Positions 54,338-56,181 of a DNA stretch of 64,000 nucleotides are shown piece by piece. Source of the stretch: Rozella allomycis CSF55. Lineage: Eukaryota. How positions within the stretch are numbered: position 1 is the stretch's first letter; each line of letters opens with the position of its first letter. The DNA lies in NCBI GenBank assembly GCA_000442015.1, contig KE561045.1, positions 1 to 64,000 on the forward strand. The letters run 5' to 3'. Under the pieces are notes generated by a model. That model saw only the letters and a program-made list of their open reading frames with translations. It did no database searches and was not told where the DNA came from. The position numbers were made by a program, and so were the translations under genes.

Positions 54338-56181
54338 ATGGCAACAGACTTGTTCATATCTGTGGATCAAGGCACGACGTCGACTAGAGGATTATTGTTC
54401 AACTCCAAAGGAGAGTGTTTATTTACACATCAATTGCCGGTTACGCAATATAGGCCAAAGCCCGGGTATTTTTACGAAATTTTAATGTAATGAAAGATAT
54501 ACTGAGCATGATCCTGTTGAAATTATTAATGGTGTTAAAAAGTGTATTGAAGAATGTGTCGCCTTTGCAGACAGTCCAATCAAAGGTACGTTTAGATGTG
54601 TTGTACGAATAGCGATCGGACTGACGAATCAAAGAGAGACAACTATTGCATGGGATAGGTTAACAGGCGAGCCATTGTACAATGCTGTTGGTAATCCATT
54701 GATATGAATTTGAAAGTTTGGCTTGATACAAGAACATCACATATAGTTGATAACTTGATTGATGTCCATAAAGACAAAAATGCATTTCTAGTAAAGAAAA
54801 TATATGCGTTTTATTTTGAAAATAACAGGAACGCCTATTTCAACGTATTTTAGTGCGTTTAAAATGATTTGGATGTTAGAGAACGTACCCAAAGTTAAAG
54901 AGGCGGCTAAAAAGGGAACACTTTGTTTTGGAACTGTAGATTCTTGGATGTTTTATGTAAAATATAATAAATGATTGTTAGAGAAACTCTTGGGAAGACA
55001 TATTACCGACGTTAGCAATGCATCAAGATACTTTATGATGAATTTGAGTACATGCTCGTGGGACTCTGAATTGTGCCAGTAAGAATGATGGAATCGTAGC
55101 ATGAAGAACATTTGGGATAAAGAGAGAATATCTTCCTGAAATTGTTTCATCTTCTGAACTCTATGGCTACTATGAAACGAATAATGGTCAGCGTATTCCG
55201 ATAGCAGGAGTAATTTGCTTCTTGTTGATTGATTAGTGCCTTGGTGATCAGCAGGCTGCCCTAGTGGGTCATCAATGTTTCTCTGTTGGATCTTTAAAGA
55301 ATACGTATGGGACTGGATGTTTCCTGTTAGCCAACACTGGGAATGTACCTGTTTTCTCTGGTAAAGGACTTGTAGCAACCGTAGCCTATAAATTGGGACC
55401 ACAAGAGCCTGTTGTGTACGCGATAGAGGTAAAATTCAATATTTGTTCCAACAAGGGTTCCATTGCGATTGCTGGTGCTGGAATTAATTGGCTAAAACAA
55501 AACTTGAAAATAATTGAATCTGAAGATGATTTTAGTAATCGAATTCTTTTATATTTCCAGACAATGCGTGCAGTGAAACTCCATCAACAGAAGGCGTCTA
55601 TTTTGTTCCCGCGTTTTCTGGTTTATTCGCTCCTTACTGGGCGTTAGAAGCCAAAGGGTAAACAATTAATCCTAACGTTTAATGAACTGTCTTAGGAATG
55701 ACTTTGAGAACAGAAAGGAAACACATCATTCGAGCATTAATGGAATCGTTTGCCTACCAAGCTAGAGATGTAAAACAATTCAAAGAAAGTGAAAAGATTG
55801 TTGAAGTAATTAAAGAAGAAATGAATTATGATAAAATCCATTTTAAGGTTGACGGCGGGGTATCAAATTCTGACGTTTGTGTTCAATTCCAAAGCGACAT
55901 TCTTGGCACTGCAGTTGGTATACTCACTTTATCAATTAATATAGAGAGGCCTAAAATGAGAGAATCGACAGGTTTGGGCGCCGCTATAGCCGCAGGCCTT
56001 GGTGTTGGATTTTGGAAAAACTTGACTCAAGTTTCAAATTCAATCAATCCAGACATTCAAGTTTTTACACCAAAAATGTCTCAAGAAGGTAGTCTTTAAA
56101 TTCTGAATTTTCGTAGATCGTGATTCCAAATATTCCTGGTGGAAAAAAGCTGTACAAAAGAGCATGGATTGGTCAGAATAA
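54338..56181 (+). CDS. GUT1: Glycerol kinase; ~13 introns including two GT-TG
   Basis: [70 protein letters not shown]. Confidence 0.97.

Follow-up and report, generated by a model that had tools for sequence, protein, structure and literature searches.

Within the glycerol kinase gene of Rozella allomycis CSF55, a parasitic fungus, a 28-nt insert that begins with GT and ends with TG stands between two conserved coding blocks, and the question raised by this locus is whether the insert is an intron and, if so, where its 3' boundary lies. The 3'-terminal AG of U2-type introns is among the strictest rules of splicing, and the insert at 54791-54818 departs from it, ending in TG and having no frame-compatible AG. 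The locus was studied in a window of 64,000 nt, the whole stretch of DNA analysed (contig KE561045.1, forward strand), whose coordinates are used throughout. The best explanation is that 54791-54818 is probably an ultra-short U2-type spliceosomal intron with a TG 3' splice site, a reading to which we assign a probability of roughly two in three.

Structure of the glycerol kinase gene

The gene model was built from tblastn of homologues, a strict parse starting at the ATG at 54338, and assembly of the spliced open reading frame from the coordinates. The spliced frame contains a single, terminal stop, and its introns measure 26-31 nt. The features are as follows.

54338..56181, plus strand, glycerol kinase (FGGY family) gene with 13 exons, 12 introns and 504 codons plus TAA
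54466..54496, 54586..54612, 54691..54716, 54957..54983, 55079..55106, 55210..55236, 55429..55455, 55535..55560, 55918..55944 and 56089..56116, plus strand, the ten GT-AG introns of the gene
54791..54818 and 55658..55684, plus strand, the two putative GT-TG introns of the gene
54717..54790, plus strand, exon 4, with a phase-0 end directly before the insert
54791..54818, plus strand, putative GT-TG intron under study, 28 nt, donor GTAAAG, 3' end TTTTG
54819..54956, plus strand, exon 5, coding for a conserved segment delimited by PDB and Pfam alignments
54827..54828, plus strand, closest downstream AG, out of phase, giving a 38-nt intron if used

Exon 4 reads in frame +0 through its last 25 residues up to 54790, and the conserved 16-residue segment that starts at 54819 lies in the +1 frame relative to it. 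When read through the insert, the upstream frame meets a stop about 20 codons later; the downstream (+1) frame, followed backwards, has TAG and TAA right at the 54791 donor. Use of the AG at 54827-54828 would remove 38 nt, which leaves a remainder of 2 modulo 3 where 1 is needed, and direct reading of the sequence found no GT in a phase that suits this AG. Since the AG is out of phase and no GT fits its phase, the insert has no GT-AG solution. A first-pass annotation made from the sequence alone had described a frame-shifting 28-nt insert, a phase-0 donor, a nearby AG out of phase, and a TG boundary matching a conserved kinase motif. The sequence at 54791-54818 is exactly as it was quoted there (GTAAAG...TTTTG), the shift from frame +0 in exon 4 to +1 in exon 5, the phase-0 end at 54790 and the 38-nt phase conflict (2 against the required 1) were all recovered, and the TG boundary does restore the conserved TG.P.STYFS motif.

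The coding nature of exon 5 was examined on its own. It matches the Pfam FGGY_N profile over positions 121-161, starting from its first residue (31.7 bits, cut-off 28.8), and in the PDB it matches trypanosomatid glycerol kinases, likewise from its first residue, a lysine (E about 7e-18). No kinase match was obtained for exon 4 in the PDB, because the region is variable. The solved structures at the top of the exon 5 search (query 54819-54947) were the glycerol kinases 8pry, 5gn5 and 3wxi, which we take to be trypanosomatid enzymes, at about 66 bits; kinases from bacteria and from other eukaryotes scored well below them. The window gave no matches in Rfam or tRNA scans. A metagenome scan for the loci of relatives, using the protein RKP19198.1 (P0009), matched 130 pattern stretches, none of which was confirmed.

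Position of the 3' boundary

Candidate boundaries were compared with a kinase profile built from 113 homologues of 470-580 aa out of the best 150 matches. Removal of 28 nt, ending in TG, gave 673.0 bits, compared with 671.0 for 25 nt (TT), 669.9 for 22 nt (TT) and 669.3 for 31 nt (AA), so that the TG boundary is preferred by 2.0 bits. The PDB and Pfam alignments take in exon 5 from its very first residue, which excludes any excision of more than 28 nt and leaves 22, 25 or 28 nt. Alignment to glycerol kinase orthologues, which the first-pass annotation had proposed as a check, thus came out in its favour, with exon 5 aligned from its first residue and the best profile score obtained at the TG boundary. 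Homology alone cannot separate the 28-nt TG excision from a 25- or 22-nt TT excision here, the scores lying within 2-3 bits. Among the 177 frame-breaking AG introns of a first parse, 28 nt occurred 30 times, 25 nt eight times and 22 nt three times, and in a stricter set of 115 AG introns the minimum length was 24 nt. The TG boundary (28 nt) is favoured over TT (25 or 22 nt) by this length distribution, by the 2-bit edge in the profile and by three sister introns described below.

Comparison with the deposited gene models

Two proteins have been deposited for this gene, EPZ33755.1 (P0013; R. allomycis CSF55), which is 100% identical to the window over shared exons, and RKP19198.1 (P0009), from another CSF55 assembly, which differs at 10 of 481 residues. 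On this basis the window was treated as nuclear DNA of R. allomycis. In EPZ33755.1, FGGY_N and FGGY_C domains were detected at 183 and 99 bits, respectively. Both models place a different intron at this locus, located by tblastn of the two proteins:

54845..54881, plus strand, 37-nt GT-AG 'intron' of both public models

In these models translation first continues for 18 residues in the wrong frame, and the intron then removes a 14-residue motif, so the deposited glycerol kinase is without the segment aligned to residues 128-168 of the E. coli kinase, residues that presumably hold a glycerol-binding tyrosine. Both models also read through the 27-nt GT-AG intron at 54586-54612, adding GTFRCVVR/G, and miss the last, 28-nt GT-AG intron at 56089-56116, ending in ...QEGSL in place of a conserved 14-residue tail. 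Against the kinase profile the public models scored 558.3 and 560.5 bits, compared with 673.0 for the TG-spliced model. Both deposited annotations are wrong for glycerol kinase and for the neighbouring anoctamin, and they are wrong in these genes because TG acceptors are disallowed.

Other putative TG introns in the window

Three further introns of the window end in TG in our models, one in the kinase gene and two in an anoctamin gene on the opposite strand.

55658..55684, plus strand, second putative GT-TG intron of the kinase gene, 27 nt, donor GTAAAC, CTAAC branch-like motif, 3' end TTAATG
51007..53475, minus strand, anoctamin/TMEM16-like gene of about 720 codons with two GT-TG candidates, modelled from the AG+TG parse, the homologues P0010-P0012 and the Pfam Anoctamin profile
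51443..51468, minus strand, putative anoctamin GT-TG intron, 26 nt, donor GTAAGA, 3' end TTATTG, from the AG+TG run
51252..51279, minus strand, candidate anoctamin GT-TG intron, 28 nt, donor GTAAAA, 3' end AATTTG, chosen by the parses

In-frame TAA, TAA and TGA codons at 55658-55684 force the removal of at least 27 nt, and the gapless ...AKG-TVL-GMT... spacing of the homologues (consensus ...argvivGlt...) is obtained only with 27 nt. The profile gave 673.0 bits for 27 nt, 665.7 for 30 nt and 662.8 for 33 nt, with longer excisions lower still, and the TG boundary is fixed by 7.3 bits. At 51443-51468, the conserved spacing before RPxPFRAQDIG is kept only by 26 nt, the TG boundary giving a gapless match through ...RP.PFRAQDIG.W.... 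Here a profile of 46 anoctamin homologues, kept from 61 as one per sequence length, scored 457.6 bits for 26 nt, 452.5 for 23 nt and 449.1 for 29 nt, fixing the TG boundary by 5.1 bits. The frame change at 51252-51279 requires a length of 1 modulo 3, which no AG suits; the alternatives score 456-460 bits, and homology does not fix this boundary. The public anoctamin protein (P0010) ends at position 278 of 460 of the Pfam Anoctamin profile, and the remainder of the domain is encoded downstream (51007-51770, minus strand), behind both TG introns.

The four TG introns have the donor and a T/A-rich 3' end in common, but no further motif. Downstream AGs lie 10, 11, 17 and 26 nt from the four TG sites, all out of frame, and at none of the four does the TG stand alongside a productive AG within 28 nt, as it would in a TG-AG tandem. 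The AG introns of the kinase gene have equally near downstream AGs, so a nearby AG is not distinctive of the TG introns.

Survey of acceptors across the window

Acceptor use in the window was surveyed with a Viterbi gene parser that combined codon log-odds from the long open reading frames of the window, a donor matrix and empirical intron lengths, and that penalized all non-AG acceptors equally. The equal-penalty scan of non-AG acceptors chose 54791-54818 and the three further TG sites. A strict parse returned 131 introns, namely 127 with AG, two with TG (both in the kinase), one with TC and one with TT. In a competition in which AG was joined by one of the 15 other dinucleotides at a 4-nat penalty (baseline score 1889.7), TG produced the largest gain of all 15, with a total of 1896.9 (+7.2), followed by TT with 1894.8 (+5.1), TC with 1893.5 (+3.8) and TA with 1891.4 (+1.7), the remaining 11 gaining at most 0.7 each. 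The TG run contained five TG introns: two in the kinase, two in the anoctamin, and one artefact at 20164. At a 2-nat penalty TT equals TG, and the competition loses power there; the additional calls inspected from that setting proved to be gene boundaries or canonical introns.

Several non-AG calls were set aside on inspection. The TC call and the fifth TG at 20164 reflect the end of a gene, with a new ATG after it; the TT call at 7188-7215 is really a 73-nt GT-AG intron exceeding the length limit of the parser; the calls at 41938 and 43393 mark gene boundaries; a canonical 29-nt intron accounts for 58808-58832; 34744-34771 sits after a natural stop; those at 32336 and 61219 fall within antisense artefact genes; and 48996-49021, 19534-19558 and 63639-63667 are in-frame, unnecessary and gone in the strict parse. 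This leaves four supported non-AG introns among about 120-130 (about 3%), every one of them with a TG end. As a dinucleotide, TG has a frequency of 6.5%, both in the window and inside introns; the two homology-fixed boundaries would both be TG by chance with a probability of about 0.004, or 1e-4 to 2e-5 when the two modal-length cases are included.

In other respects the insert resembles its neighbours. Donors begin with GTA in 167 of the 177 frame-breaking AG introns, with A as the commonest fourth base, and the GTAAAG donor of 54791-54818 agrees with this consensus; its 28 nt fall inside the range of the genome (mode 26-29 nt). The four TG-intron donors (GTAAAG, GTAAAC, GTAAAA and GTAAGA) do not follow the extended U12-type donor consensus, RTATCCTT. 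The acceptor context of AG introns is very weak, position -3 in the 177 being T in 66, A in 57, G in 28 and C in 26. In the last 10 nt of the 115 stricter AG introns, AG is mildly depleted (30 observed, 42.1 expected), and no avoidance of TG was seen (66 observed, 50.8 expected); TG is therefore not generally competitive when an AG is in range. The 30 occurrences among 115 mean that about a quarter of AG introns carry another AG within their last 10 nt, so a simple first-AG rule fails.

Reproducibility in independent DNA and constraint on the gene

The window belongs to a draft that carries 17 single Ns, and the first-pass annotation had named a homopolymer indel error as a finding that would overturn its proposal. 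Logan contigs from three DNA runs were aligned to 44001-64000. One contig of run X4 (record 15) spans 53668-57937 with 35 substitutions and no gaps. A contig of run X7 (record 25) spans 53866-55034 with 32 gap letters, all accounted for by two deletions (54039 and 54217) that lie ahead of the start codon. Both contigs are gapless at 54791-54818, which disposes of the indel; with its length matched in independent DNA contigs, the insert is not an assembly error. The protein of the second public assembly (RKP19198.1) reads ...FYFEN... over the acceptor, from which it follows that the last two bases of the intron there are T or C, then G, hence a non-AG acceptor. Comparison of the RNA-labelled run X12 with the window gave only chance partial matches of 23-31 nt, and we infer the splicing of 54791-54818 from DNA and homologues.

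Divergence between the window and the contigs of the other runs is about 0.8% (35 differences in 4,270 nt for X4). Small indels occur in intergenic DNA; in X7 they measure 20 and 12 nt and lie upstream of the start codon of the kinase, and in X4 one of 27 nt lies at 49837. In some runs, two variants coexist at the same positions. This divergence and the dual variants are consistent with two haplotypes or strains under one strain label. At 53634-53668, within the 3' portion of a small gene with a LYR motif, a 33-nt near-duplicate surrounds a single N at 53667; the X4 contig skips it, the contigs from X1 and X7 stop at it, and it is probably an assembly artefact.

The glycerol kinase gene looks to be under constraint. 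Among the kinase-exon variant sites listed, five of eight are synonymous (54379, 54400, 54403, 55025 and 55052) and three are conservative replacements (54942, 55035 and 55048); in this small sample of listed variants, at least five synonymous sites in eight has p = 0.027 under neutrality. With its 12 introns removed the reading frame is intact, unlike that of a pseudogene. Between the two public proteins, 3 of 18 intron codons differ, compared with 7 of about 454 exon codons (Fisher p = 0.005), and two of the ten residue differences between the assemblies fall inside 54791-54818, which indicates that this stretch evolves like an intron and not like an exon. Each of the four non-AG acceptors corresponds to an A-to-T change at -2; transition products (AA or GG) and donor changes are absent. 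Such uniformity is what a filter for still-functional sites would be expected to leave, unlike random decay.

Discussion

Four other accounts of the insert were weighed against a TG-ended intron. The one that calls for most attention, although we consider it unlikely, holds that AG-to-TG mutations have disabled the acceptors, that the insert is retained or removed by a frameshifting 38-nt splice, and that both genes, kinase and anoctamin, have recently become pseudogenes or make little functional protein. In human, AG>TG mutants activate neighbouring AGs and do not splice at the TG (PMC2374985); an out-of-frame AG does lie 10-11 nt downstream of both kinase TG sites, TG is not avoided near AG acceptors, and the confinement of the four TG sites to two genes could point to gene decay. 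However, about 1,220 codons of the two genes contain no further lesion, the conserved motifs directly behind the TG sites are intact, and the non-AG acceptor is common to both assemblies; the excess of synonymous changes among the listed kinase exon variants (5/8) and the restriction of all four changes to A-to-T at -2, with donor and G position untouched, likewise speak against decay. It is considerably less probable that the intron is real and uses the same donor with a TT boundary at 54815 (25 nt) or 54812 (22 nt), which would place one or two more residues before KITG. Both boundaries are frame-compatible, they cost just 2.0 and 3.1 bits in the profile, and the spacer before TG.P varies among homologues; against them, introns of 25 and 22 nt are rare (8 and 3 of 177, versus 30 of 28 nt), none in the stricter set of 115 is shorter than 24 nt, and the three sister introns end in TG, two of them at homology-fixed boundaries.

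That the public models are right, the 28 nt being coding and continuing as an 18-residue run in the upstream frame to the 37-nt GT-AG intron at 54845-54881, we regard as very improbable. Every splice site in them is canonical and the structure is shared by both deposited annotations (EPZ33755.1 and RKP19198.1), yet they cut out the part of the protein aligned with FGGY_N 121-161 and with the PDB kinases, lose about 113 bits against the homologue profile, and leave unused a frame that stays close to the KITGLPVSTYF segment of the trypanosome kinases; the same models read through one clear 27-nt intron and miss the last one. We give hardly any credence to the idea that, in place of an intron, the insert reflects an indel from sequencing or assembly or else programmed +1 ribosomal frameshifting. 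The 17 single Ns of the draft allow for the former, but contigs from other runs are gapless at the site and the second assembly has the same frame; the latter would put nine extra residues into a spacer of 19-21 residues and offers no account of 55658-55684 with its three in-frame stops.

If 54791-54818 is a TG-ended intron, its removal would join 54790 to 54819 and give a full-length glycerol kinase with the conserved substrate-binding segment. The last G of an intron pairs with its first G, and the base at -2 contacts the branch adenosine. In tiny introns the 3' splice site may be set mainly by a short, nearly fixed distance from the donor and branch region, and in the second catalytic step U at -2 could stand in for A, the terminal G being kept. 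An AG at the right distance would win if present, and TG would be used when the permitted interval holds no AG. That the Rozella spliceosome in general takes A or U at -2, placed by distance in introns of 26-29 nt, with about 3% constitutive GT-TG introns, is a tentative extension that we hold at slightly short of even odds.

Constitutive GT-TG introns are already known, from the introner elements IE-B and IE-D of Micromonas (Verhelst et al., 2013; PMC3879977), and Rozella would be like them in having GT-TG ends in a microbial eukaryote. The Micromonas elements, however, are repeated, transposon-like and 100 to 6,494 nt long, whereas the four Rozella introns are unrelated in sequence and 26-28 nt long; save for the base at -2, they otherwise resemble the ordinary introns of their genome. 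Human U2-type TG 3' sites, as described by Szafranski et al. (2007; PMC2374985), are exclusively alternative, lie at most 28 nt from an AG, never serve as the sole site, and are used at about 0.01% of candidate motifs. The putative Rozella intron is like them in its normal-strength GT donor, its TG acceptor and the presence of an AG within 28 nt downstream (10 nt in Rozella), and unlike them in that the TG would be the sole productive site, the nearby AG being out of frame, in the frequency of TG introns (about 3% of those in the window) and in the intron length of 26-28 nt. For Ganoderma lingzhi, a well-annotated fungus, Table 1 of PMC11590231 gives GT-TG at 22 junctions (0.024% of the total), no commoner than GT-AA or GT-GG, unlike the Rozella window, where it accounts for four of about 120-130 introns and is the sole surviving non-AG type. 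Putative introns of about 30 nt without conserved motifs have been described in R. allomycis S23 (Whelan et al.; PMC6349667), and the ultra-short introns of Rozella, microsporidia and ciliates share a length of about 25-30 nt and weak internal signals (PMC6349667, PMC5014332); the portions of these two papers drawn on here make no mention of non-AG acceptors in such introns. Among the papers that our literature searches listed, none linked Rozella with non-canonical splicing.

For the biology of Rozella, the best-studied relative of microsporidia, the consequences concern both splicing and annotation. Should TG acceptors be used as proposed, Rozella would be a natural system for studying 3' site choice without AG recognition in ultra-short introns, and extrapolation from this one window suggests that several hundred GT-TG introns would exist genome-wide. 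Gene finders restricted to GT-AG yield wrong proteins in these Rozella genes; both public annotations would then mis-model the affected genes, some apparent motif losses would be annotation artefacts, and comparisons of metabolic loss between Rozella and microsporidia built on such models could mislead.
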